Below are positions 16,176-30,304 of a stretch of DNA of 64,000 bases, in pieces (position 1 is the stretch's first letter; the number at the start of each line of letters is the position of its first letter). A program made the position numbers and the translations under genes. The notes below the pieces were generated by a model. The model was given only the letters and a program-made list of their open reading frames with translations. It made no database searches and was not told the DNA's origin. Source of the stretch: Anaerolineae bacterium (lineage in GTDB: Bacteria; Chloroflexota; Anaerolineae; JACRMK01). The DNA lies in NCBI GenBank assembly GCA_038198935.1, contig JBBPZQ010000127.1:824-64823 (forward strand). Reading direction: 5' to 3'.

Positions 16176-16871
16176 ATGCGTGTGCCCAGCCTGCGTTTAT
16201 TGATTGTTGACGATCATCCGCTCGTGCGTCAAGGACTGCGCCGTGTACTAGAACGCGAGAAGGACATCGACGTAATCGGCGAAGTTGCCGACGGCCAACA
16301 GGCGATTGACGAAGCCAAACGGCTCACCCCGGATGCGATCTTGATGGACATCAACTTGCCGTCGGTCAACGGCTTGCAGGCGATGCGCGAGATCAAACAC
16401 CGCCAGCCCAGCATCGCCGTCGTGACGCTCACGGCATATAACAACCCCGCGCAGTTGTTCCACGCGATGCGCGCGGGCGCGTCGGTGTACTACCCCAAAG
16501 AGGTTTCCCCAACCGAGTTGCTGCGCGGTATCCGCACGGCGGTCGAAGGTAAATACATTGTGGATAGCCGCGTGCTGAACGAGAAGCAGCTGAACGATTG
16601 GCTCTTGCAACAATTTGCGACCATCGGCATCGGCAGCCACGATTACCCCGAAGAGATGTTCGTGCCGCTCTCCGCACGCGAGATGGAAATCCTGCAACAA
16701 ATTTCGCGCGGACTGAGCAACAAAGAGATCGCCAAGGAACTCGGTATCTCGCGCCAGACCGTGAAGAATCACATGACCTCGATACTGCGGAAGTTGTCGG
16801 TCAACGACCGCACGCAGGCGGCGCTGTACGCGCTGCGTCACGGCTGGATTCGTCTCGAGGACACGCAATAG
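16176..16871 (+). CDS. NarL/FixJ-family response regulator (REC plus LuxR-type HTH)
   Basis: DD...D...K receiver residues; C-terminal LuxR HTH. Confidence 0.85.
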   Translation: MRVPSLRLLIVDDHPLVRQGLRRVLEREKDIDVIGEVADGQQAIDEAKRLTPDAILMDINLPSVNGLQAMREIKHRQPSIAVVTLTAYNNPAQLFHAMRAGASVYYPKEVSPTELLRGIRTAVEGKYIVDSRVLNEKQLNDWLLQQFATIGIGSHDYPEEMFVPLSAREMEILQQISRGLSNKEIAKELGISRQTVKNHMTSILRKLSVNDRTQAALYALRHGWIRLEDTQ

Positions 16872-17939
16872 ATGAGCGCGGAAATCGCGGTGGTGCCGAC
16901 CGGCGTGGCCGGCATTCTGCTCGACTTGGAGCAGGAAGCGCAGCGCATCGAGAATGACCGCGGCGAGATCGATATGCTAGTGCGCCAGAGTCGCGGCGAA
17001 ACGGAAACGCTCAGCCGCCGCGAGCAGCAGATGACCAATCGGCTGCGGCAGGTCGAGACAAACCTCGACAACTATTCGCGCGACGAGATTCGTGAAATCT
17101 ATACGACTGTGCGCGACACGCAGATGCGCTTGTTCGTGATGCGCAGCCAAGCCGAGCAGCTCGAACACAAACGCCAGACGCTAGAGCAATATGCCGAGCA
17201 GCTCAGCCGACTACACGAATCGTTGCAGCGGATGGACAGCAGCGCACCTGCACCCGCGCCTGCAATCGCGCAACTCGCGACGCCGCAGCAGACCATCATC
17301 CGCATCATTGACGCGCAAGAAAAAGAGCGGCAAATGCTCGCGCGACAGATGCACGATGGGCCCGCCAGTTCACTTAGCAACCTGGTGTTGCAAGCCGAAG
17401 TCGTCGAGCGACTTTTCGAGGTCAATCCGTCGCAGGCGCGGGCAGAGCTTGGCGCGCTGAAGAATACCGTCAACCTGACGTTCCAACGCACGCGCGACTT
17501 CATCTTCAACTTGCGTCCGATGATGTTGGACGATCTCGGACTGTTCCCCACGCTGCGCCGCTACGTGCAAGAATTTCAAAGCAAGACGGGCATCACCTCG
17601 CAACTGACGATCATGGGCAAGGATCGCCGCTTGCCCGCACACAGCGAAGTTATATTATTTCGCGTGATTCAGGAATTACTCGGCAACGTCGAGCATCACG
17701 CGAACGCCAATCGCGTGCTCGTCAGCCTCGACGTAGGCGAGCAATTCGTCAGCGCGACGGTCGAAGACGACGGCAACGGCTTCGACGTACAGCAGACGTT
17801 GAGCGATGCCCGAGGGGGCAAGACGCTCGGCATCGGCAACATCCTCGAACGCGTCGAGTTGCTCGGCGGCGAAATCCGCTTCGAGAGCAGTATCGGGCGC
17901 GGCACGCGCGTCAGCCTGCGCTTGCCGGCTCTCGACTGA
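16872..17939 (+). CDS. cytoplasmic sensor histidine kinase (HisKA_3 plus HATPase_c), coiled-coil N-terminus
   Basis: H-box QMHDGPASSL; N/G boxes; no TM segments; start overlaps RR stop (translational coupling). Confidence 0.8.
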   Translation: MSAEIAVVPTGVAGILLDLEQEAQRIENDRGEIDMLVRQSRGETETLSRREQQMTNRLRQVETNLDNYSRDEIREIYTTVRDTQMRLFVMRSQAEQLEHKRQTLEQYAEQLSRLHESLQRMDSSAPAPAPAIAQLATPQQTIIRIIDAQEKERQMLARQMHDGPASSLSNLVLQAEVVERLFEVNPSQARAELGALKNTVNLTFQRTRDFIFNLRPMMLDDLGLFPTLRRYVQEFQSKTGITSQLTIMGKDRRLPAHSEVILFRVIQELLGNVEHHANANRVLVSLDVGEQFVSATVEDDGNGFDVQQTLSDARGGKTLGIGNILERVELLGGEIRFESSIGRGTRVSLRLPALD

Positions 17940-17966
17940 AATCAGCTGCTCGAATTGAGGTGCTTG

Positions 17967-18004
17967 ACGTAGAGACGTAGCGATGCTACGTCTCTACGTT
18001 TTTG
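17967..18004 (+). terminator. intrinsic terminator after kinase gene
   Basis: acgtagagacgtagc / gctacgtctctacgt hairpin followed by TTTT. Confidence 0.7.
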
Positions 18005-18033
18005 TACTGACCGTTAATAAGGTTGCGGTACTA

Positions 18034-18062
18034 TTGTTCGCGCTGCTATTACAACCTATAAT
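18034..18062 (+). promoter_or_regulatory. sigma70-like promoter of flp pilin gene (TTGTTC - 17 - TATAAT)
   Basis: Perfect -10, 17-nt spacer; about 68-nt 5'UTR with small hairpin and AAGGAGGTG RBS. Confidence 0.5.
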
Positions 18063-18130
18063 CCAATCACAAACACCACTGAACCATCTCGTTCAGATTC
18101 AAGTTCCAAAGCGAAAGGAGGTGAATCCCC

Positions 18131-18277
18131 ATGCTATTCAATCCACGCGAGGAAGGGCAAGGTTTGGTAGAGTACGCACTGATTCTGGTGCTGGTCGCCG
18201 TCGTGGTCATCGCCATTCTGACCCTGCTCGGGCCGGCCATCGGCAACGTCTTCAGCACGATCAAGAACAACTTCTAA
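18131..18277 (+). CDS. flp: Flp-family type IVb prepilin (48 aa), not in ORF track
   Basis: MLFNPREEGQG/LVEYALILVLVAVVVIAILTLLGPAIGNVFSTIKNNF: class III signal peptide with G/xxxxEY cleavage motif and hydrophobic stretch; strong RBS AAGGAGGTG 7 nt upstream. Confidence 0.85.
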   Translation: MLFNPREEGQGLVEYALILVLVAVVVIAILTLLGPAIGNVFSTIKNNF

Positions 18278-18308
18278 TCATCCCCCTGTCCTAGTTCGTC
18301 ATTTACGT

Positions 18309-18340
18309 TAGAGCCCGAATCCGTCGTGAGGAGGGCTCTA
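18309..18340 (+). terminator. hairpin (partial terminator/attenuator) after flp
   Basis: tagagccc - 16 nt - gggctcta; no clean T-tract so likely partial readthrough into tadE genes. Confidence 0.35.
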
Positions 18341-18411
18341 CTTGCGTCAGCCTGTAATGAAGTGTCACGGTCCTGCAGCAAAGAACGCGCTCAATTGCGC
18401 AAAGTAGATTT

Positions 18412-18867
18412 ATGCATCAGTCATTATCAACCCGCCGCACCGTCGAGCGCGGTCAAAGCGTCGTCGAGTTTGCGATGTTCCTGCCGCTGCTCATCTTGTT
18501 ACTCGCCGGCGCGATTGATTTGGGCAACGCCTTCCAGACATGGATCAATTTGACCAATGCCGCACGCGAGGGCGCACGCTATCAATCCAAGTTCAACGAC
18601 TCGAGCGTCGCGTGCTCGCGGGTGCAGAATGAGTTGGCGAACAACAGCATCACGATCCCGTGCGGTCAAGTCAGCGTGAGTTATCCATCCGAGAGCGATA
18701 TTGATCCGAGGCTCGACTGCACGAGAGGCGCGTACACCACTGGCTGTCCGCTGCGCGTCTCGGTGCGCTACGGGCTGTCCACGCTCGTCGGCGATGTATT
18801 GAAATTCAATCCGATCACGATTACCGCATCGGTTGACATGGTGATCTATGGCGACGACACCCGCTAA
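18412..18867 (+). CDS. tadE: TadE/TadF-like minor pilin (pseudopilin)
   Basis: N-terminal xxVEFAMFLPLLILLL TadE motif. Confidence 0.75.
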   Translation: MHQSLSTRRTVERGQSVVEFAMFLPLLILLLAGAIDLGNAFQTWINLTNAAREGARYQSKFNDSSVACSRVQNELANNSITIPCGQVSVSYPSESDIDPRLDCTRGAYTTGCPLRVSVRYGLSTLVGDVLKFNPITITASVDMVIYGDDTR

Positions 18868-19249
18868 ACGCACACATACACACGCGCAGAGCATGGTCGA
18901 GTTCGCACTACTGCTGCCGGTGTTCGTGCTCGTCACCTTCGCTATCTTCGAGTTCGGGCACGCCTTCTACATCTACAATGCGATTGCCAATGCGGCGCGC
19001 GAGGGCACGCGCTACGGCGTCATCGCGCCGACCGACACGAACGGTATTAAAGATCGCGCCGTCAACAATGCAGTGGGCGTCAACATCACGCGCAGCGACG
19101 TGACGGCGACGACGATCACTTCAGGCTCGTGCGTGCTCGACACCCCGATCACTGTCACGGTGCGCTACACGTTCTCTGCCGTCGTCGCGATGGAGCCGAG
19201 CTTCGTGATGAATCGCAGCGCCAGTATGCGCATCGAGCAGTGTCCATAG
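18848..19249 (+). CDS. tadF: TadE/TadF-like minor pilin (second copy)
   Basis: N-terminal SMVEFALLLPVFVLV motif; overlaps upstream gene by 20 nt. Confidence 0.75.
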   Translation: MATTPAKRTHTHAQSMVEFALLLPVFVLVTFAIFEFGHAFYIYNAIANAAREGTRYGVIAPTDTNGIKDRAVNNAVGVNITRSDVTATTITSGSCVLDTPITVTVRYTFSAVVAMEPSFVMNRSASMRIEQCP

Positions 19250-19473: not shown

Positions 19474-22400
19474 ATGAACAACCTCAATGAGCGCCGTCTG
19501 TTGTGCATCATCAGCATCCTGAGTTTTGCGTTCGTCCTCTGGCTGGCCAGCGTGAGCACGACCGGAGCCGTGCCGCGCGGCATTCAGGAATATACGCTCA
19601 CCACCACGAGCGATTTTGCGGCGGGCACGGCGCTCCGCACGGGACTCGTCAACAATAATGGCGGTGAGGTCGAGTTGGTGCCCGTCGGCGTGACCGGCAT
19701 CTGGGTGACGGACACGCAACAGCTGCCGCTGCCCCGCATGGAACTGGCCACCGCAACTGATGGCAATCGCATTTACGCGCTCGGCGGTGTGGACGACTCG
19801 TCACTGCCGCAGCGCACCATTTACTCGACGACAGTAGTCGGCGGCGCCTTGACCAAATGGGTCACGCAAACGAATGCTTTTCCGATTCGCCTATCGGGTC
19901 CCAATGCGCTCATCGCGACGGCCGGCGGCGCCACACGCCTGTACGTGCTCGGCGGATTCGACGGCTTCAACGTATCCAATAAGGTTTACTACGCTGCACT
20001 CAATAGCGATGGCTCAGTAGGTATCTGGATCACGAACTCGATCAACTTGCCGGTTGGCGTGTATTTCGCGTCGAGTGTCGTAAATCGCAATTACATTTAT
20101 GTCATCGGCGGCATTGACAACCTGAACGCCTATCGCAACATCGTCTATCGCGCGCCTTTCAACAATGACGGTTCGGTCGGCGCATGGACGGCGGTTGCAT
20201 CGCTGCCGCAGCCCATCGCGCTGTCGGCCGCCGTGGTGTATAACGGCTCCAATGCTGACACGATTTACGTGCTCGGCGGCGCGACCAGTTCGCTGACGAA
20301 CACGGCGAATGTTTACTTCAGCGACATCAATCCGGCTGACGGCACGCTGACCAGTTGGACATCGTCGGATGGTGTGCTGCCGCAGGCGTTCTCCAGCCAC
20401 GCAGCCGTCCAAGCCAACGGGCAAATCTATGTCATCGGCGGCAACTCCGGCGGTTTGGTGAGCAGCTTGCAGCCGCGCAAGCTCGTGCTGGCTGCGCTCG
20501 TGGACGAAAACAATCCGACGCGCCGCTTGTTTGACTTCGGCGGCGGCCAATCATCGTGGGTCGAGACAGAGCCGCTGCCGGTACCGCGTCGCTTGCACGG
20601 CGCGGCGCTGGTGAGCAGTCAGCTGTTTGCGATTGGCGGCGACAGCGCGACGGGCAACTCGAACAGTTCGCCGAGCACTCTCACGTATCACGGACCCATC
20701 GGCGGCGTTGGCGCACGATATGCACCGTCGGGCATTTACGTCTCGCCCATCATCAACGTCGGCGGCAGTTTCCAAATGCTCGATCTGGAGTGGTCAACAG
20801 TCATCACCAACCAGAGCGCGCTCAGTGTGACTCTACGCTATCACACCAGCACGAACGGCATGGATTGGTTCCCGTATAGCGGCTTACTGCCGTCGTCGAG
20901 TGCGACCTCAGCCAATTTGCTCGACGCGAAACCGATCACTTATCCATTGAACACCATCGGTCAATACTTCCAGTATCAGGTGTTCTTCACGACGACGCTC
21001 AGTTCGGTCACGCCGTTTTTCACCGAAAGCCATCTGCGCGTGCTGCCGCCGCCGCCCGACTTGGCTGTGAGCAAAGCCGCGCAAGCCAAGCAGGTGCTGC
21101 CCGGCAACCTGATTACTTACACGATTGCGTACAGCAACGTGAACGGCAGCACCGCCGTCGGCGTGATCTTGACGGAGTCAGTGCCGTCCAACACGACGTT
21201 CGTCGGCGCAGATCCGGGTTGGCTGCCAGCAGGCAATGGCTTGTACACGAAGCTCGTCGGCACACTGGGTCCCAATAACAACGCGATCACCCATTTCGTC
21301 GTGCGCGTCAACAACCCGCCGCTGGCATCGTCGGTGGCGAATATGGTGAGTATTGGGGGCGATCCGAGCGAGACGAATTTCAGCAACAACAGCGCAGGCG
21401 TGAACACCATCGTGCAGTCGCTCGTCAACGGCGTTGACCTGCGCGTGAGCTTAGACGATCAGTTGACGTATCCCATCGCGGGGCAGGTCATCAGCTACGC
21501 TGTCACGTACATCAACTTTGGCGACACCGCCGCGAATGGCGCGCGCCTGACCGAGACGCTGCCTGCGAATATGACTTACGTCGGCGGGCCCGAATGGTCC
21601 AATGTCGGCGGCAATCAATACGCACACGACATCGGCACGGTCGCCAGCGCAGACTCCGGCGGACTGAATTTTGTCACGCTGCTGGACGCCAATGTCGGCG
21701 GCAACACGCAACTGACGAATACGGTGACGATTGGCTTGGCTGGCACGGACGTGAACACCGCCAACAATACTGCAACGGATGTTGATCTGGTACTGCCACC
21801 CAATTTAAGCGTAACGCAAGATGACGGCACCGCCGTCTTGACGCCGATGCAAATCGTAACGTACACCATCCTTTATCAAAACGTCGGCGGTGCGGCGGCG
21901 ACGAGCGTGATGCTGACTGAGACATTGCCACTCGCCGTCAGCGTATTCAATGCGTCGGGCTGGACGCCAGCCGGCGGTCAGTACGTGCGCAATCTAGGCA
22001 CGCTGGCACCGGGCGCCAGCGGCAGCGCGACCTTCGCGGTGCAGGTGAACAATAATGTGAGCAATGGCACACTCATCACCAACAACGTGACCATCCTCGG
22101 CGGCGGCGAAAATCTGTCAACGCTTGGCGACAACAGCGCGCGCGACGTGGACACCGTGTTCGTCGGCGGCGCACCTGACCTTCAAATCAGCGGCGCGAGC
22201 GGCGCGTTGGCTGTGGCTGGCCAGCCCGCCAGTGTCGTCGTGACCGTCACCAACGCCGGCAGCGCGGCGACGCCGACGTGGTTCTTTGTTGATCTGTACG
22301 TGGATCCGAGCGCGCCGCCGACGAACCGCTCGCAGTTGGGCAACAATTTCACTACGAATGGCGACCTGCTGGCACCGGGCGAGTGGCGTCGCTTGAGCAT

Positions 22401-22596
22401 TCCGTGGACATTTGCATCGGCCGGTTCGCACACGCTCTATCTACAAGCGGACACGTGCGATGGGAGCACGGATTGCCTTGATCCATCCTACGGGCGCGTC
22501 GCCGAATCAAACGAGGCAAACAACATTTTTGGGCCCCTCCTCGTCAACGTCACGGCGACGGGCGCGACGATCTATCTGCCGCTGATCCGACGATAG
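19474..22596 (+). CDS. large secreted/cell-surface protein: N-terminal signal/anchor, six Kelch-type beta-propeller blades, then multiple DUF11 (conserved repeat domain) units
   Basis: Repeated IYxLGG/YVIGG Kelch signatures at residues about 90-400; at least 4 DUF11-like repeats (e.g. TYTIAYSNVNGSTAVGVILTESVPSNTTFVG); Asn/Thr-rich. Confidence 0.7.
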   Translation: MNNLNERRLLCIISILSFAFVLWLASVSTTGAVPRGIQEYTLTTTSDFAAGTALRTGLVNNNGGEVELVPVGVTGIWVTDTQQLPLPRMELATATDGNRIYALGGVDDSSLPQRTIYSTTVVGGALTKWVTQTNAFPIRLSGPNALIATAGGATRLYVLGGFDGFNVSNKVYYAALNSDGSVGIWITNSINLPVGVYFASSVVNRNYIYVIGGIDNLNAYRNIVYRAPFNNDGSVGAWTAVASLPQPIALSAAVVYNGSNADTIYVLGGATSSLTNTANVYFSDINPADGTLTSWTSSDGVLPQAFSSHAAVQANGQIYVIGGNSGGLVSSLQPRKLVLAALVDENNPTRRLFDFGGGQSSWVETEPLPVPRRLHGAALVSSQLFAIGGDSATGNSNSSPSTLTYHGPIGGVGARYAPSGIYVSPIINVGGSFQMLDLEWSTVITNQSALSVTLRYHTSTNGMDWFPYSGLLPSSSATSANLLDAKPITYPLNTIGQYFQYQVFFTTTLSSVTPFFTESHLRVLPPPPDLAVSKAAQAKQVLPGNLITYTIAYSNVNGSTAVGVILTESVPSNTTFVGADPGWLPAGNGLYTKLVGTLGPNNNAITHFVVRVNNPPLASSVANMVSIGGDPSETNFSNNSAGVNTIVQSLVNGVDLRVSLDDQLTYPIAGQVISYAVTYINFGDTAANGARLTETLPANMTYVGGPEWSNVGGNQYAHDIGTVASADSGGLNFVTLLDANVGGNTQLTNTVTIGLAGTDVNTANNTATDVDLVLPPNLSVTQDDGTAVLTPMQIVTYTILYQNVGGAAATSVMLTETLPLAVSVFNASGWTPAGGQYVRNLGTLAPGASGSATFAVQVNNNVSNGTLITNNVTILGGGENLSTLGDNSARDVDTVFVGGAPDLQISGASGALAVAGQPASVVVTVTNAGSAATPTWFFVDLYVDPSAPPTNRSQLGNNFTTNGDLLAPGEWRRLSIPWTFASAGSHTLYLQADTCDGSTDCLDPSYGRVAESNEANNIFGPLLVNVTATGATIYLPLIRR

Positions 22597-22742
22597 CATA
22601 GGAATAAAGTAGTGAGAACAATGGGTTGTTGCAATGGCATGCTGTGCGTCGTAGAATACTCGCGCCTTGCTGAGGTTTAAGCGCTCTATCCGTTGACGTG
22701 CGGACGGCTGCAGCGAGAGTTCATCAGATACGGAGGCGCATC

Positions 22743-23549
22743 ATGCGTCGTGTCGGTCGCATTCTGATCGTTTTGGGTGTCGCGCTGGGGTTGATCACCT
22801 TCCTTGCAGCAATGATCATTCTGCCACAACTGTCGAGCAGCGGCGGGCCCGTCGTCAAGACGACCAAAGTCGTCGTGGCGCAGCAGAACATCGCCTCGCG
22901 CGCGCCCGTTCCACGCGCCGCGCTGACGGTTGTCGAATGGCCCGACGACGAAGTGCCGGCCGGTGCCTTCACCGATCCGGACCTGGCCTCCAAGGACAAA
23001 TTGTCCAAGACAAACATTGCCATCGGACAAGTCGTCTTGTCGAGCATGGTGATCGAAAAGAAGAACGAGGAGAAGCGCAAAGGCATCGGCTCCGATGCGT
23101 CGTACATCGTGCCGGCCGGCAAAGTCGCCGTCGCGTTCCCGCTCAGCATGTTGTCGGGCGTGGCGTCGGCGCTGAAAGATGGCGACACGGTGGACTTGCT
23201 CGTGAGCTACGAATTGGTGCCGGCGCCGGGACAGGCACAGACTGGCGTAACGCGCCGACAGATCACGCAGTTGACGATGCAAGACGTGGAGATTTTGCGC
23301 GTGGGTCCATGGAACCAGCCGGCGGCCGCCGACGGCGCGCCGTCGAAAGATGCGAACGTCTTGACGTTATTGGTCAATCCGCAGGACGCGCTCGTGCTGA
23401 AGTTCCTGCGCGAGACCAGCGCCGACGTGCAGTTCGCCCTGCGCGCGGCCGGCGATCATCAAGTGTACAAGACCGACGCCGTCATTATCGAGTACGTTGA
23501 CCAGCGTTTCAATTTCACGGGCTCACTCGTGGGTCGCCCATCACGCTAA
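22743..23549 (+). CDS. cpaB: Flp pilus assembly protein CpaB/RcpC (SAF-domain)
   Basis: Single N-terminal TM then SAF/RcpC region; track ORF 22698..23549, start refined to MRRVGRIL. Confidence 0.65.
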   Translation: MRRVGRILIVLGVALGLITFLAAMIILPQLSSSGGPVVKTTKVVVAQQNIASRAPVPRAALTVVEWPDDEVPAGAFTDPDLASKDKLSKTNIAIGQVVLSSMVIEKKNEEKRKGIGSDASYIVPAGKVAVAFPLSMLSGVASALKDGDTVDLLVSYELVPAPGQAQTGVTRRQITQLTMQDVEILRVGPWNQPAAADGAPSKDANVLTLLVNPQDALVLKFLRETSADVQFALRAAGDHQVYKTDAVIIEYVDQRFNFTGSLVGRPSR

Positions 23550-23564
23550 TTTTCAGGATGACGT

Positions 23565-24983
23565 ATGAGCATGTTGGCAGATAAAATTCGCATCGTCGTC
23601 GTGGACGACAACACGGACACGCTCAACAACTTGAAGAAGTTGTTGTACTTTGAAAAAGATATTGAGATCGTCGCGACGGCCGCTTCGGGCGAGGATGGCG
23701 TGCAGGCGTCGGTGCTGCATCAACCCGACGTGGTGTTGATGGACATCAACATGCCCGGCATGGACGGCATCTCTGCCAGCGAGATCATCAACACGCGCGT
23801 GCCAAGCGCACAGATCATCATCATGTCGGTGCAAGCCGAAGCCGACTACTTGCGGCGCGCGATGATGGCTGGCGCGCGCGATTTTTTGATCAAACCGTTC
23901 AGCAGCGAGCAATTGGCTTCGACGGTGCGCAAGGTGTATGCGCTCGGCGCGGGGCAGCGCAGCGGCGCGCTTGTCACTGCCCTCGCCGCGCCAGCGCAGC
24001 GTGAGCCTGTCGAACGAGCCGCGCCGATGGTTGGCATGCCGCAGTCCGTGGCAGCGCAGCCGAGCGTGCTGACGCAGTATGCACAGACGAGCACGCTCAC
24101 GCCGCCAAAGCCGCAGTACGCGTCGAGCGCGCCGACGTTCGTGGTCGCGCCGGCGGCGCCCACCAATCCGATTCCAGTGGACGGCGTCAAGCAAGGCACA
24201 GTGTTCGCGGTCGTCAGCGCCAACGGTGGCGTCGGACGCAGCACTATCGCCGCGAATCTAGCGATTGCGTTGAAGGGCGAGACGAACGGCAAAGTCGGAT
24301 TGGTGGATTGCAGTCTGCGCTTCGGCGACATTGGTGTGCTGCTCAATCTGACTTCGACACACACGATCTCGGATATCGCGGCAGCCGAAGGCGGTGTGGA
24401 CACGGAGATTCTGGTGGATGTAATGTCCACGCATCCGTCGGGCATCAAGGTGCTGCTTGCGCCCGCATCGCCGGAGTTGGCCGATCTGGTGGGTCCGCAG
24501 GCGATGCGCACGATCTTGAACACGCTGCGCGAGCATTTCGATTTTCTCATTCTGGACACCTTCACCTCGTTCGACGAAGTGATGCTGACCATCCTCGACG
24601 TGGCGGACCAAATCGTGCTGCTCACGACGAGCGAGCTTCCATCCATCAAGAACACGAAACTGTTTTTTGAAGTGATTGATGCGCTGAAGTATCCGACCGA
24701 AAAAACGCTGCTGGTGCTGAACAAGTACGACCCGAAGAGCACGATCAAGCCCGACGACATTCAGGCAAGCATCAAACATGCGGTGTACTCCATGATCGAG
24801 CGTGACGACCGCGCGACGACGCAGGCCGCGCAGACGGGCCAGCCTTTCGTCGTCAATCAGCGAAACTCGTCGGCGACCGTCGGCGTGCAGCGTCTGGCAA
24901 AACTGCTGACGCGCCCGCCCGAACCCGTGGCCGTACCCGCGTCCGCGGACGCGAAACCGCAACGCAGAGGATTGTTTCGCTGA
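23565..24983 (+). CDS. cpaE: CpaE/TadZ pilus localisation ATPase with intact N-terminal receiver domain
   Basis: REC domain with DD, phospho-acceptor D (LMDINMPGMDG), S and K conserved; ParA/MinD-like domain with VVSANGGVGRSTIAANLA deviant Walker A. Confidence 0.8.
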   Translation: MSMLADKIRIVVVDDNTDTLNNLKKLLYFEKDIEIVATAASGEDGVQASVLHQPDVVLMDINMPGMDGISASEIINTRVPSAQIIIMSVQAEADYLRRAMMAGARDFLIKPFSSEQLASTVRKVYALGAGQRSGALVTALAAPAQREPVERAAPMVGMPQSVAAQPSVLTQYAQTSTLTPPKPQYASSAPTFVVAPAAPTNPIPVDGVKQGTVFAVVSANGGVGRSTIAANLAIALKGETNGKVGLVDCSLRFGDIGVLLNLTSTHTISDIAAAEGGVDTEILVDVMSTHPSGIKVLLAPASPELADLVGPQAMRTILNTLREHFDFLILDTFTSFDEVMLTILDVADQIVLLTTSELPSIKNTKLFFEVIDALKYPTEKTLLVLNKYDPKSTIKPDDIQASIKHAVYSMIERDDRATTQAAQTGQPFVVNQRNSSATVGVQRLAKLLTRPPEPVAVPASADAKPQRRGLFR

Positions 24984-25075: not shown

Positions 25076-26524
25076 ATGTCCTTGCTAAAACGCATCGAGC
25101 GCAGTTACCAACAGCAGTCGGAGCTGACCGCGCCGCCCACCAACGGCGGCAGCAGCGGCGCGCTGCCGCCCACATCGCCAGCGCCGCCCGACAGCAACGG
25201 CTCGAAGTTGGAAGAGCTACGCCTGCGCCGTGTGCAATCCGCGCCGGTGCGCGACGCTCAACGCGAACTGCGCGAGCGCATCCACGCGCGCCTGATCGCC
25301 GAACTCGACCACAAACTCGACGTCTCCAAGACCGACGAGGTGCGCAAGAATTTAGACGTTTTATTCAACACCGCACTCGACGACGAAAACGTACCGATGA
25401 ATCGGGCGGACAAAGCGAAACTGTTCGAGCAAATTGTTGCGGACATCCTCGGCTTTGGTCCCATCGAGCCGCTGCTCGCGGACGACTCCATCTCGGAGAT
25501 CATGGTCAACGGACCTAAAGCGGTGTACATCGAGCGCAACGGCAAGGTCGAGAAGACCGCCGTCACCTTCGAGAACGATGGGCACGTTGGACGCATCATT
25601 GACCGCATCGTCTCGCCGCTCGGCCGGCGCGTGGACGAATCGCAGCCGTATGTGGATGCGCGCTTGCCCAACGGCTCGCGCGTGAACGTCATCATCCCGC
25701 CGCTGTCCTTGAAGGGGCCAACCATTACCATCCGCAAGTTCTTCAAGCGCATGTTAACGGCGGAGCGGCTGATAGACTTAGGTTCGATCACGCCCGAAGC
25801 GATTGAGCTGCTGAAAGCCTGCACCTACGCGCGCCTCAACATGGTGATCTCGGGCGGCACCGGCACGGGCAAGACGACGTTTCTCAATATGCTCAGCGGG
25901 TTCATTCCCTCCGACGAGCGCATCATCACGATTGAGAACGCGGCGGAGTTGCAGCTGCAGCAGGAGCACGTCATCACGCTGGAGTCGCGTCCGCCCAACA
26001 TCGAAGGCAAAGGCGAGGTGACCATTCGCGATCTAGTTATCAACGCCTTGCGCATGAGACCCGAGCGCATCATCGTGGGCGAGTGTCGCGGCGGCGAGGC
26101 GCTGGACATGCTGCAAGCGATGAACACGGGGCACGATGGCTCGCTGACGACCATTCACGCCAACACGCCGCGTGATGCGCTGGCGCGCATTGAGACGATG
26201 GTGCTGATGGCGGGGCTGGACTTGCCCGTGCGCGCGATTCGCGAGCAGGTGGCGAGTGCGCTCGACGTGGTGGTGCAGTTGGAGCGGCTGCGCGATGGCA
26301 CGCGGCGGGTGGTGCAGATCGCGGAAGTGCAGGGCATGGAAGGCGACGTGATCGTGATGCAGGACATCTTCAAGTTCGAGCAGTTGGGCATCGAGAACGG
26401 CAAAATCAGCGGGCGCTTACAGCCGACGGGCATTCGTCCGAAATTCAGCGAGAAGTTGGACGCGGCCGGCATTCAACTGCCGCCCGAAGTCTTCGGCTTC
26501 GGCGCCGATAAACGACGGCGCTGA
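25076..26524 (+). CDS. cpaF: CpaF/TadA type II/IV secretion ATPase
   Basis: Walker [10 protein letters not shown], Asp box, Walker B, His box. Confidence 0.9.
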
Positions 26525-26630: not shown

Positions 26631-27596
26631 ATGAACCCAGCCGCATTGGGGCTCGCATTGAGCTGCATGTTTTCGGTCATCATCTTTTTCTTTGGATTGG
26701 CGCGCTTCGTGGGCGGGGGCAACCAGCAAGTTTCCAATCGGCTCGAACGCTTCGCCACACGACCAGGTGCGACGCTGCCAGCCGCGTCGAGTAAAGACCA
26801 AAAGCGCGGACGCATCGCCGCAGAGATTGACAAAGAGCTGAGTCGGCGCGGGCGCAGCAATAACATCGCCGCCGAACTCGCGCGCGCCGATCTCAAGCTG
26901 ACGCCGGGCGAATTCTTTCTCATTCAAGTGCTGGTCATCATCGTGTTAGGCATCACGGGATACCTCGTCTTTCGTCAGCTGGTGATGGCGCTGCCGATGG
27001 GCATCGTCGGCTATTTCCTGCCGCGCTTTTACGTGCGCTTCCGTCAAGGACTGCGGCAGCGCACGTTCTACACACAACTGCCCGACGCCATCAGCTTGCT
27101 CGCCAACTCACTGCGCTCTGGCTACAGCCTGCCGCAATCTATGGAGTTGCTCTCGCGCGAGATGCAGCCGCCCATCGCCACTGAGTTCGGGCGTGTCGTG
27201 CGCGAGATCGGGTTGGGCTTGCCGTTCGAGCAAGCTATGGAGAATATGGTGCGCCGCAACAAGAACGACGATCTCGATCTGACCGTGACCGCCATCCTCG
27301 TGAATCATGAAGTCGGCGGCAACTTATCGCAGGTGCTGGAGATCATTGGCCACACCATCCGCGAGCGCATCCGCATCAAAGGCGAGATTCGGATCATGAC
27401 CGCGCAGCAGCAGTTGTCCGGCTACATCGTCGGCTTGATGCCATTCGGGTTGACGTTTTTCCTCTTCGTCATCAACCCCGACTACATGGGCGAGTTGTTT
27501 CATAGCCTGTGCGGGCAGATGCTCGCGTGCACGGCCTTCTCGTTCGTCGGCATTGCGTTCGTGCTCATCCGCAAGATCGTGAACATCGAGGTCTAA
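26631..27596 (+). CDS. tadB: TadB platform protein (T2SS-F family)
   Basis: T2SSF domain, three TM segments. Confidence 0.8.
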   Translation: MNPAALGLALSCMFSVIIFFFGLARFVGGGNQQVSNRLERFATRPGATLPAASSKDQKRGRIAAEIDKELSRRGRSNNIAAELARADLKLTPGEFFLIQVLVIIVLGITGYLVFRQLVMALPMGIVGYFLPRFYVRFRQGLRQRTFYTQLPDAISLLANSLRSGYSLPQSMELLSREMQPPIATEFGRVVREIGLGLPFEQAMENMVRRNKNDDLDLTVTAILVNHEVGGNLSQVLEIIGHTIRERIRIKGEIRIMTAQQQLSGYIVGLMPFGLTFFLFVINPDYMGELFHSLCGQMLACTAFSFVGIAFVLIRKIVNIEV

Positions 27597-27597
27597 C

Positions 27598-28524
27598 ATG
27601 GCTGTCTTTATCGCGCTGGGTTTGGGCGTCGCCGTCGTGATGGTTTTCGTCGGCTTGGCGATGCCGCGCGGCGTTGATCCCGTGCAAGCGCGACTCAATC
27701 AATATGGCTCGCGCGTCCGCACGCTGGAAGAAATGGAACTGGAGCGTCCCTTCAACGAGCGCACCGTTAGGCCGCTCTTGCAAAACATGGCCCGTTTGGT
27801 GCTGCGCTTTACGCCGCAGACGAACTTGAAAGAAGCGCAGCGCAAGCTCGACATGGCAGGCAATCCGAACAACTGGACGGCGTCGGATTTTCTCGGCGTG
27901 CGTGGGCTGTCGGCGCTGGCGTGTGGCAGCATTCCATTGCTCCTGCTGTGGTTCAGCCACGCGCCGCTGCAAAACATGATTTTGCTCACTGCGGCGGGTG
28001 CGCTGCTCGGCTTCTTCTTGCCGGTCATCTGGATCGCGCAAAAAATTAAAGCGCGGCAGAAAGCGATTCAAAAAGGACTCCCCGACGCGCTCGACCTGCT
28101 GACGATTAGCGTCGAAGCCGGACTCGCACTCGATGCGGGCTTCGCCAAAGTGGCAGAGAAAGCCGACAGCGAAATCGCGCGTGCGTTCGGGCGCGTCATC
28201 AGCGAAGTGCGCGTCGGTCGTCCGCGCAAAGATGCATTGCGCGACATGGCAGATCGCGCGGGCGTGCCCGACCTCACCAACTTTGTGACCGCGCTGATTC
28301 AAGCCGAGCAACTCGGCGTGAGCATGACGAAGATTCTGCGCATCCAGTCGGAGCAGATGCGCATCAAGCGCCGCCAGCGTGCAGAAGAGCAAGCGCAAAA
28401 AGCGCCGGTCAAAATGAGTGTGGTACTGGTGCTCATGCTTCTGCCTGGCTTGTTCATCGTCATCCTCGGTCCGTCGGTGCCCCGCATCTGTCGGCAGTTC
28501 GATATATCTGACATCTGCAAATGA
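27598..28524 (+). CDS. tadC: TadC platform protein (T2SS-F family)
   Basis: T2SSF domain; start 1 nt after tadB stop. Confidence 0.8.
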   Translation: MAVFIALGLGVAVVMVFVGLAMPRGVDPVQARLNQYGSRVRTLEEMELERPFNERTVRPLLQNMARLVLRFTPQTNLKEAQRKLDMAGNPNNWTASDFLGVRGLSALACGSIPLLLLWFSHAPLQNMILLTAAGALLGFFLPVIWIAQKIKARQKAIQKGLPDALDLLTISVEAGLALDAGFAKVAEKADSEIARAFGRVISEVRVGRPRKDALRDMADRAGVPDLTNFVTALIQAEQLGVSMTKILRIQSEQMRIKRRQRAEEQAQKAPVKMSVVLVLMLLPGLFIVILGPSVPRICRQFDISDICK

Positions 28525-28859
28525 GAATTGCCAACCTCACGCGCGCCACGCTCATCGCCGCCGACGCGCGTGAGGCGCGCACCTTCGTGCAGCGGCTGTT
28601 CGGCTTGATGGGCCGACGGCGGCTGTCCGACAATGCTGCGCTCGTTCTGCCCGACAATTGGGTGCATACCTTCTGGATGTACTTCCCCCTCGATCTCGTG
28701 TATATTGATCGCGCGCGGCATGTGGTAGGATTGCAAGAAGCCGTGCCGCCCAATCGCCTCGGCAAACCGTATTGGTCTGCGCACGCCGTGGTCGAATTGA
28801 ATGCGGGCGTGATTCACAACAGTCAAACACAAGTTGGCGATCAATTACAATTTGAGTAG
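28521..28859 (+). CDS. DUF192 family protein
   Basis: ATG overlaps tadC stop (ATGA); conserved LDLVYIDRARHVVG core typical of COG1430/DUF192. Confidence 0.65.
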   Translation: MRIANLTRATLIAADAREARTFVQRLFGLMGRRRLSDNAALVLPDNWVHTFWMYFPLDLVYIDRARHVVGLQEAVPPNRLGKPYWSAHAVVELNAGVIHNSQTQVGDQLQFE

Positions 28860-28882
28860 GCGCTTCCGCCTCCCCTGAGCAT

Positions 28883-29581
28883 ATGTCAGCGCCACGCTGG
28901 TTTCAGTACGCTCGGCTGGCACTCCTCGATTTGATTTTTCCGCCGCGCTGCGCGGGCTGTGGTCGCGCGGGCGAATGGTTCTGTGCCAAATGCGTCGCGT
29001 CGCTGCATCGCGTGCGTGAGCCGATCTGCGGGCGCTGCGGCCAAGAGTTGTCTTCGCGCTCGTGCTTAGCATGTCGCCGCCATGCGCTCCCGGCCTATCT
29101 GCACGGCTTGCGCGCCGTCGCGCATCACGATGGGCAACTGCGCAAAGCCATTCATAGACTGAAGTACGAGCGACTGAGCGCCATTGCCGAACCCTTGGGC
29201 CAATTGCTGTGCGATTACCTCGACGCAAATCCGCTGCCTTTCACGCTGATTGTGCCGGTGCCGCTGCACGACGAGCGTCAGCGCGAGCGCGGCTACAATC
29301 AATCTGCGCTGCTGGCTGATGTTGTCAGCCGACGCACTCAGCAACCCGCGCAACAAAACATCCTCGTGCGCACGCGCCACACCATTCCGCAAGTCGGCTT
29401 GAACGAACACGAGCGGCGTCAAAACCTGATTGATGCATTCGCATGCGTGCAGCGCGTGGATGACGCACAAGTGTTGTTGATTGATGATGTGTGCACGACG
29501 GGTTCGACGATGAGCGAGTGCGCGGCGGCGCTGCACGCGGCGGGCGCGCGTTCCGTCTGGGGATTGACTTTGGCGCGCTAA
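28883..29581 (+). CDS. comFC: ComF/ComFC-family phosphoribosyltransferase-like protein
   Basis: N-terminal CxxC...CxxC zinc ribbon; C-terminal PRTase motif LIDDVCTTGST. Confidence 0.75.
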   Translation: MSAPRWFQYARLALLDLIFPPRCAGCGRAGEWFCAKCVASLHRVREPICGRCGQELSSRSCLACRRHALPAYLHGLRAVAHHDGQLRKAIHRLKYERLSAIAEPLGQLLCDYLDANPLPFTLIVPVPLHDERQRERGYNQSALLADVVSRRTQQPAQQNILVRTRHTIPQVGLNEHERRQNLIDAFACVQRVDDAQVLLIDDVCTTGSTMSECAAALHAAGARSVWGLTLAR

Positions 29582-29666
29582 GGTTCAATAATTGACATTG
29601 AACGTTGGACGTTGGAGGCATTCCAATTCAACATCTAACGTCCAGCATCCAAATCAGGAGGATCGT

Positions 29667-30248
29667 ATGCAACTTTCGATCACGGGCCGCAATGTCGAGA
29701 TCACGGAACACACACGAGACTACGTAGATAAGCGGCTGCAGCGCGTCGTGCGCCATTTACCCGCTCTCACCGAAGCGCGCTTCGAACTCACAGTGGAAAG
29801 CACCAAAGGTGCAGAACAGCGCAACGTGGCGCAAGTCACGCTGCGCGCGGGCGGCGTCATTCTGCGCAGCGAGGAGCGCGCGTCCGATTTGTTCACCGCG
29901 ATTGACGCTGTGATGGATCGCGCAGTGCGCCAAGCAGACCGCTTCAAAGGCAAACGACAGCAGAAGCGCAAACGTGCAAACGGACTACACGAGAATGTCG
30001 AGGCGTTCAACCAAGAAGCGGTGCTGACGGCCGAGCCGACGACAGAAGAAGCAGTTGAATCGTATCAACCCATCGTGCGCATCAAACGATTCCAGAGCGC
30101 GCCGATGGAGCCCGAAGAAGCCATCGAGCAAATGGAATTGCTGGGCCACAACTTTTTCGTGTTCTTCAGTAGTGAGGATGGCCAAGTCAACATCCTCTAT
30201 CGCCGCAACGACGGCACTTACGGAGTACTGATCCCCCAAATTGCATAA
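29667..30248 (+). CDS. hpf: ribosome hibernation promoting factor, long form
   Basis: MQLSITGRNVEITE N-terminus; C-terminal dimerisation domain; track ORF 29592..30248 refined. Confidence 0.85.
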   Translation: MQLSITGRNVEITEHTRDYVDKRLQRVVRHLPALTEARFELTVESTKGAEQRNVAQVTLRAGGVILRSEERASDLFTAIDAVMDRAVRQADRFKGKRQQKRKRANGLHENVEAFNQEAVLTAEPTTEEAVESYQPIVRIKRFQSAPMEPEEAIEQMELLGHNFFVFFSSEDGQVNILYRRNDGTYGVLIPQIA

Positions 30249-30267
30249 CCATTGAACCACAGAAATC

Positions 30268-30304
30268 AAAACGGGTAGATCATATTGGATCTACCCGTTT
30301 TTTG
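30268..30304. terminator. bidirectional intrinsic terminator
   Basis: aaaacgggtagatc - atattg - gatctacccgtttttt between convergent hpf and GT2 gene. Confidence 0.75.

Follow-up and report, generated by a model that had tools for sequence, protein, structure and literature searches.

Within a 64,000-nucleotide (nt) stretch of DNA from an Anaerolineae bacterium (contig JBBPZQ010000127.1; hereafter the window, whose positions are used for all coordinates), a 48-amino-acid (aa) open reading frame (ORF) at 18131..18277 on the forward strand is very probably flp, encoding the major pilin of a Tad (tight adherence, type IVc) locus that has no secretin, from a member of the Chloroflexota (Anaerolineae/Caldilineae-like). 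An earlier note on this DNA had read the ORF as an unannotated gene for a Flp prepilin, and the identification stood up, with every feature that it had listed found in its stated place; the protein scores 33.4 bits against the Pfam model Flp_Fap (PF04964), above its curated gathering cut-off of 32.2 bits (E 4e-8, residues 12-48). ‘Unannotated’ was right for a six-frame track with a 60-aa limit and wrong for public data: NCBI, JGI and Logan gene calls already include the identical 48-aa protein, from contigs as long as 65.6 kb, and its 90% cluster mates MBI1800883.1 and MBI3732199.1 carry the name ‘Flp family type IVb pilin’. The gene is of a known kind, already called and named by public databases; length-filtered six-frame views simply lose ORFs under 60 aa such as Flp pilins, and beyond correct annotation the significance of the finding is small. 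Tad pili are nevertheless the sole pilus system reported in filamentous Chloroflexota and are believed to power adhesion and perhaps also gliding (PMC7332563; PMC4877987), and the promoter element, linked two-component system and variable terminator described here could guide work on adhesion switching in these poorly studied bacteria.

Identity and conservation of the pilin gene

The ORF (ATG start; MLFNPREEGQGLVEYALILVLVAVVVIAILTLLGPAIGNVFSTIKNNF) has the layout of a Flp/Fap prepilin, MLFNPREEG/QGLVEY-ALILVLVAVVVIAILTLLGPAIG, with a short leader ending in Gly and then a hydrophobic segment, as defines the family. The processing motif and hydrophobic core that the earlier note had pointed out are both present, G9/QGLV-E14-Y15 fitting G/XXXXEY and being followed by a hydrophobic stretch of ~23 residues. 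A regular-expression scan of all six frames found one Flp-like ORF in the 64 kb, the other match being only the pilin-like N-terminus of the neighbouring TadE1. At E <= 1e-3, 7,857 homologs were retrieved from among 5.8 billion proteins; PF04964 was assigned to every homolog listed, and many were named ‘pilus assembly protein Flp/PilA’ or ‘Flp family type IVb pilin [Chloroflexi bacterium]’. The 80 related loci from reference genomes (related loci and contigs used for comparison bear labels such as L002 or L083) belong nearly all to Chloroflexota, namely Anaerolineae, Caldilineae, Ardenticatenales and Chloroflexia.

Codon comparisons indicate that flp is under purifying selection. Against L002, which encodes an identical protein, the gene has nine DNA differences, 9 synonymous and 0 non-synonymous, and more distant relatives differ by 15-26 synonymous codon changes versus 6-13 amino-acid changes. 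Two overlapping ORFs, at 17983-18294 (forward strand, 103 aa) and 18067-18270 (reverse strand, 67 aa), were rejected as genes because, read in the frame of flp, all nine of the L002 differences are synonymous. Across 20 aligned homologs, G9, Q10, G11, V13, E14 and Y15 are invariant, defining a G-Q-G-x-V-E-Y core. Sequence and family profile also matched the solved Tad pilins 8u1k (PilA) and 8u2b (Flp family type IVb pilin) with E values of 0.0024-0.013, in a register that places Q10 at residue 1 of their mature 45-aa chains; cleavage is therefore predicted at G9/Q10, with residues 1-9 as leader, and the mature pilin is predicted to be a single 39-aa helix carrying Glu5 and Tyr6. AlphaFold2, run on the 20-sequence alignment, modelled residues 1-9 as coil and residues 10-47 as one helix (mean predicted local distance difference test score 83.9), as expected of an all-helical pilin. 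A Foldseek search of this model against the PDB gave 0 matches, which says nothing either way when the query is a lone helix.

Tandem arrays of 2-4 flp paralogs occur in many relatives (L005, L007, L011, L018, L019, L022, L027, L029, L034, L042, L049, L056, L062, L070, L072, L073 and L079), most copies having their own Shine-Dalgarno (SD) sequence and many a leader hairpin and terminator, and the window has a single copy. Two contigs binned to Proteobacteria, L031 (CAZGUM010000330.1, ‘Methylomonas sp.’) and L060 (CAZPFY010000019.1, ‘Pseudomonadales’), encode Chloroflexota-type Flp proteins 71-73% identical to that of the window, and are probably mis-binned.

Expression signals around flp

The operon upstream of flp, which encodes a response regulator and a histidine kinase, is closed by a canonical intrinsic terminator at 17966..18000 on the forward strand (16-bp stem, 3-nt loop, TTTTTGT tail; −30.8 kcal/mol, z −8.2, with 0/200 shuffles folding as well), and flp therefore needs its own promoter, as had been claimed for it. 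A candidate lies at 18027..18062 on the same strand, where the element GGTACTATTG (18027-18036) overlaps the −35 hexamer TTGTTC (18034-18039), followed by a 17-nt spacer and a perfect −10, TATAAT (18057-18062); this is the TTGTTC-17-TATAAT that the earlier note had placed about 70 nt upstream, its −10 ending 68 nt before the ATG. The site scores 9/12 against the sigma-70 consensus, and GC content dips to 0.43-0.46 across it. A perfect TATAAT occurs 8 times in the window and TTG-N(19-21)-TATAAT 5 times. Among six close relatives with otherwise diverged upstream DNA, the only invariant blocks are GTAC-ATTG, overlapping the −35, and the −10, giving the footprinted form GGTACTATTGTTC-17-TATAAT and a core element GTACYATTG. 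Across 100 flp genes, a sigma-70-like site of at least 9/12 was found upstream of 46% versus 3% of controls; as the controls were random 150-mers of the same loci and mostly coding DNA, the stronger argument is positional clustering: 38 of the 46 sites have 50-77 nt between the end of the −10 and the start codon. The motif RGTACY was likewise found upstream of 35% of flp genes against 4-8% of controls, and CTATTG upstream of 24% against 2-3%. We predict from this conservation a sigma-70-type promoter that is positionally conserved among relatives, with a predicted transcription start site at ~18069-18070, and the pairing of a weak −35 with a perfect −10, next to a conserved GTACY element, suggests that it is activator-dependent. 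The same GTAC[T/C]ATTG recurs in a second promoter ahead of tadE in L002 (708-742), L004 (3539-3581) and L087. A subgroup of Anaerolineales (L009, L012, L015, L017, L022, L030, L035 and L057) is without the GTACY element; at ~25 nt upstream of the flp −35 it instead carries palindromes, for example TTACAAAATTGTAA or TAACAGGATTGTAA, that may serve a regulator of this type as an alternative operator.

The SD sequence AAAGGAGGTGA (18114..18124, forward strand) offers 11 nt of complementarity to a generic 16S 3′ tail and ends 6 nt before the ATG, and its core AAGGAGGTG at 18115-18123 is the sole copy in the window, where 0.21 would be expected. When duplex energies with this generic tail were computed for every ATG, GTG and TTG on both strands (6,735 sites), flp ranked first at −21.7 kcal/mol, ahead of a runner-up at −15.9 kcal/mol, so that the description of this ribosome-binding site as the strongest in the window was literally true. 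The sequence before tadE1 (AAAGTAGATTT ATG) is a poor SD. AAAGGAG(G) is conserved upstream of flp in relatives, and the strong expression signals of flp are typical of them. A search of Rfam at a permissive E-value over 17800-18600 returned no match, and hence no known riboswitch or small RNA in leader or spacer.

The order response regulator, histidine kinase, flp is found in ~20 of the 80 related loci, at just 40-70% protein identity, and also in the sister contig L083; loci with this arrangement are L004, L009, L011, L012, L015, L025, L030, L035, L045, L047, L048, L057, L059, L064 and L083. Such linkage suggests that the pair is a dedicated regulator of pilin expression, and by analogy with other Tad systems the neighbouring response regulator is a possible activator at the flp promoter. 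A likeness of GTACY to the NarL heptamer TACYYMT or to the PprB site GGCTAATAC was considered, found not convincing, and is not claimed.

Downstream of flp, a hairpin formed by UAGAGCCC and GGGCUCUA (18309..18340, forward strand) has an 8-bp outer stem, three inner pairs and a 16-nt loop region, and folds at −16.4 kcal/mol (z −2.5, with 4/200 shuffles folding as well). As the earlier note had seen, it is without a T-tract: its tail is CTTGCGTC, of which CUUGCGUC has fewer than the five T in eight that define a canonical intrinsic terminator. The hairpin may still work like a weak terminator, and is a candidate leaky terminator and/or 3′-end stabiliser. The possibility that it is a dispersed repeat was rejected, as it occurs once in the window. 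Of 76 relatives, 56 have a canonical terminator (at least 5 T in 8 nt) no more than 100 nt downstream of their last or only flp, versus 8% of controls, and this strict rule missed several more; nearly all relatives have some hairpin at the equivalent place, and ~10 loci, including the window, keep a strong hairpin without a T-tract. In the closest clade, the stem is kept through compensatory changes (GAGCCC/GGGCTC in the window, ATAGCCC/GGGCTAT in L083, GTAGAGCCCCAC/GTGGGGCTCTAC in L004), while tails are canonical in L002, L086 and L087 and T-poor in the window, L083-85, L004 and L011. Between 18278 and 18431 there is no promoter-like site of at least 8/12 and no GTACY or CTATTG motif, and the automated promoter scan found none there either; the flp-tadE gap is 134 nt in the window versus 190-270 nt in relatives with a second promoter.

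These patterns offer a tentative generalisation, which we hold at well below even confidence: that Chloroflexota flp genes share an undescribed expression module consisting of an activator-type GTACYATTG promoter, a stem-loop in the leader, an SD close to perfect and a hairpin behind the gene. In such a module, GTACYATTG would possibly be the target of the frequently adjacent DegS/NarL-type two-component system, and the U-tract and a duplicate GTACYATTG promoter before tadE would be gained or lost between species, the window representing a state with a leaky hairpin and no second promoter, in which read-through would set the ratio of major to minor pilins. A leaky attenuator at 18309-18340 that would yield an excess of pilin over tadE products, as the earlier note had suggested, is plausible on the comparative data. 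What this leaves are minor, incremental leads: the GTACYATTG element, the recurring proximity of a two-component system, the stem-loop in the leader, and an evolutionary exchange of ‘terminator plus second promoter’ for ‘T-less hairpin’ and back.

Several observations pull the other way, both for the pilin and for its proposed regulation. The Pfam cut-off was passed by a mere 1.2 bits, an NCBIfam search returned no model matching the Flp protein, and no prepilin peptidase (Peptidase_A24) was found among the ~50 window ORFs scanned, leaving processing without a local link. The −35 matches the consensus at only 3/6 positions and the automated promoter scan made no call, the site then being assessed by the custom scan and controls given above. 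GTACYATTG also occurs in L087 and L088, which have no adjacent two-component system, so that its link to the neighbouring response regulator is conjectural. L004 combines a T-less hairpin with a second promoter, and in L083-L086 a perfect TATAAT marks a possible second promoter; the rule that a T-less hairpin goes with no second promoter was dropped on account of L004 and is kept as a description of the window only. Finally, every other hairpin of the clade is stronger than that of the window (−16.4 versus −20 to −27 kcal/mol; z −2.5 versus −4 to −9), which fits simple decay as well as tuning.

The strongest competitor to partial termination is that decay: a former terminator with no regulatory role, flp, tadE1 and tadE2 being simply co-transcribed. 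We regard this as possible without favouring it, and are similarly reserved about its corollary that any excess of pilin would come only from the exceptional SD and from mRNA stability, a corollary with which the gulf between the flp SD and the poor one before tadE1 agrees. The weak hairpin, its 16-nt loop region and missing T-tract, and a 134-nt flp-tadE1 spacer that as a whole is not unusually structured (z −0.47) all speak for decay, and functionless decay fits almost as well as a partial terminator; set against it are the retention of the stem by compensatory changes across species with diverged flanks and the presence of a hairpin at this position in nearly all relatives. Rather less likely is that the hairpin stops transcription efficiently, or marks a processed 3′ end that protects a monocistronic flp mRNA, while a promoter that went unrecognised in 18341-18411 drives expression from tadE onward. 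The layout met most often in relatives has a canonical terminator after flp, L002, L004 and L087 do have a second GTACYATTG promoter before tadE, and Pseudomonas aeruginosa has separate PprB-dependent promoters for flp and rcpC-tad (PMC6821963); weighing more heavily are the empty promoter scan of 18278-18431, the short gap relative to second-promoter relatives, and the T-tracts of the terminators otherwise used by this genome (the window has 12 strong examples, almost all of them where genes end).

In the predicted 5′ untranslated region, a hairpin at 18079..18096 (forward strand), CUGAAC-(6 nt)-GUUCAG, has a 6-bp stem and lies ~18 nt upstream of the SD; its stem is kept in L002 with a different loop. 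We read it as a probable stabilising 5′ stem-loop, and the 46 nt upstream of the SD are indeed more structured than dinucleotide shuffles across the 100 flp genes (mean z −0.96, p 8e-11, 49% below −1). The same inverted repeat, CTGAAC-N6-GTTCAG in the DNA, could instead be an operator for a dimeric repressor downstream of the transcription start site: its 6-bp arms form a perfect palindrome, their location at about +10 to +27 is one where repressors classically bind, and L002 has identical half-sites around a different spacer. We think this improbable, since hairpins of unrelated sequence at the equivalent place in other lineages better fit a constraint on RNA structure, and no repressor gene is evident beside flp. 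That the ORF itself is a chance small ORF, or encodes some other small membrane protein, has in its favour its very short length, the narrow Pfam margin and the empty Foldseek result, and is so far outweighed by the 7,857 homologs, the exclusively synonymous divergence, the invariant core, the in-register match to solved Tad pilins and the adjacent Tad genes conserved across the phylum that the first three of these refute it for practical purposes.

Proposed mechanism and gene neighbourhood

Under the favoured reading of a partial terminator behind an activated promoter, transcription would start near 18069 and give a ~61-nt leader with a small hairpin, the adjacent response regulator possibly acting as flp activator in the manner of PprB in P. 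aeruginosa. The 48-aa prepilin would insert into the membrane, where a TadV/CpaA-type aspartic prepilin peptidase, which must be encoded elsewhere in the genome, would by analogy cut after Gly9; the 39-aa mature helix, with its Glu5 and Tyr6, would then be polymerised by TadA, TadB and TadC, with TadE minor pilins priming assembly as presumed from related systems. The hairpin at 18309-18340 would descend from the terminator that follows flp in most relatives, having lost its U-tract, and would probably stop or stabilise only part of the flp transcripts, so that read-through would supply tadE1 and tadE2, genes without a predicted promoter of their own. A partial stop combined with a very strong SD could in this way yield a large excess of major over minor pilins.

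Genes for such a pathway surround flp on the forward strand. The two-component pair begins with a NarL/LuxR-family response regulator at 16176..16871 (receiver domain and GerE helix-turn-helix; Pfam Response_reg 2.4e-28, GerE 5.3e-22), for which the best NCBIfam matches are NarL-like and below cut-off, and continues with a DegS-like cytoplasmic histidine kinase at 16872..17939, assigned by Pfam (DegS, HisKA_3, HATPase_c) and synteny. Downstream of flp come two genes for tadE-like minor pilins, tadE1 at 18412..18867 (Pfam TadE 6.8e-16; N-terminus ...ERG/QSVVEF...) and tadE2 at 18848..19249 (Pfam TadE 3.4e-16; N-terminus ...THA/QSMVEF...), which overlap by 20 nt. Their N-termini G/QSVVEF and A/QSMVEF echo the G/QGLVEY site of Flp, a resemblance that suggests processing of all three proteins by one shared peptidase.

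Between the tadE genes and cpaB lies a gene for a 1040-aa surface-type protein (19474..22596) in which Pfam recognises a Kelch beta-propeller, three DUF11 (CLIPPER) domains and CARDB domains behind an N-terminal hydrophobic anchor. Its counterpart occupies the identical position in L083/L084, and L087 has a Tad/TadG-like protein in that slot; the 1040-aa protein is a candidate pilus-associated adhesin or TadG substitute. The assembly genes proper follow: cpaB/rcpC at 22698..23549 (Pfam RcpC 1.2e-14; TIGR03177 at 89.2 bits versus a cut-off of 71), preceded by a weak promoter candidate, TTGCAA-17-TAGAAT, at 22629-22657; a tadZ/cpaE-type ParA/MinD ATPase gene at 23565..24983 (Pfam Response_reg, AAA_31, ParA), through whose N-terminal receiver domain phosphorylation may control pilus assembly or localisation; the secretion ATPase gene tadA/cpaF at 25076..26524 (Pfam T2SSE 3.6e-62; TIGR03819 E 1e-100, below its cut-off); and the platform-protein genes tadB (26631-27596) and tadC (27598-28524), both Pfam T2SSF. 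The cluster goes on over 28521-30298 with genes for a DUF192 protein, a ComF-like phosphoribosyltransferase and hpf (hibernation-promoting factor), and ends at a bidirectional canonical terminator after hpf (30271..30298), the first strong intergenic T-tract terminator 3′ of flp on the forward strand.

The window carries a complete secretin-less Tad pilus locus, probably functional, in which tadA, tadB, tadC, tadZ, cpaB and tadE are co-located, TadE and T2SSF each being present twice. No outer-membrane secretin RcpA/CpaC, TadD or RcpB, components expected only of diderm-type loci, was found among the ~50 ORFs scanned across the window; the absence of a secretin here is the layout described for Chloroflexota clusters and leaves the pilin assignment unaffected.

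Comparison with known Tad systems

The Flp/Fap pilins Flp-1 of Aggregatibacter actinomycetemcomitans, PilA of Caulobacter crescentus (PDB 8u1k) and Flp of P. aeruginosa likewise combine a short charged leader, a G/XXXXEY site and a hydrophobic helix, and their genes likewise stand at the head of, or beside, tadE/F, cpaB/rcpC, tadZ, tadA, tadB and tadC. The prepilin of the window differs from the solved pilins in being shorter, with a 9-aa leader and a predicted mature chain of 39 aa rather than 45 aa, and from these systems in its mature N-terminal Gln, in having no secretin, TadD or RcpB found, and in lacking a linked peptidase. Overall, the differences from textbook Tad cases are modest.

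Closer parallels come from the Chloroflexota themselves. An Anaerolineae cluster of pilA(Flp)-cpaB-cpaE-cpaF-tadB-tadC has been described in which pilA transcription was ‘strikingly high’ (PMC4877987), and flp, tadEEG and rcpC-tadZABC are present in Chloroflexales (PMC7332563). These published clusters share phylum and gene set with the window, and in them too the pilin gene leads the cluster, with very high transcript levels in metatranscriptomes; beyond them, the window has two tadE genes and the 1040-aa Kelch/DUF11/CARDB gene between flp and cpaB. Neither paper gives an account of promoter, leader, terminator or an adjacent two-component system (PMC4877987; PMC7332563).

For regulation, the nearest comparison is with P. 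aeruginosa, where PprB from the two-component pair PprA-PprB directly controls separate flp and rcpC-tad promoters (PMC6821963). As with PprAB, the tad locus of the window has next to it the genes of a two-component system whose response regulator is of a DNA-binding type, and as with the dual flp/tad promoters, one element precedes both flp and tadE in L002, L004 and L087. Unlike PprB, the regulator of the window scores best against NarL-like models, and GTACYATTG does not resemble the reported PprB site; the likeness between the systems is one of arrangement.

A further parallel is the ‘termination cascade’ that Kram et al. are said to have described in 2008 for A. actinomycetemcomitans, in which transcription from the flp promoter reportedly falls progressively downstream, leaving more pilin mRNA than assembly-gene mRNA. 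Reduced transcription behind flp, as in this reported cascade, and separate promoters, as in P. aeruginosa, are two routes by which known Tad systems come to have more pilin than assembly proteins. The same idea of downstream reduction would apply to the window. Unlike that cascade, the window would rely on a single hairpin without a U-tract, whereas most of its Chloroflexota relatives have a full terminator after flp, and some a second promoter as well.

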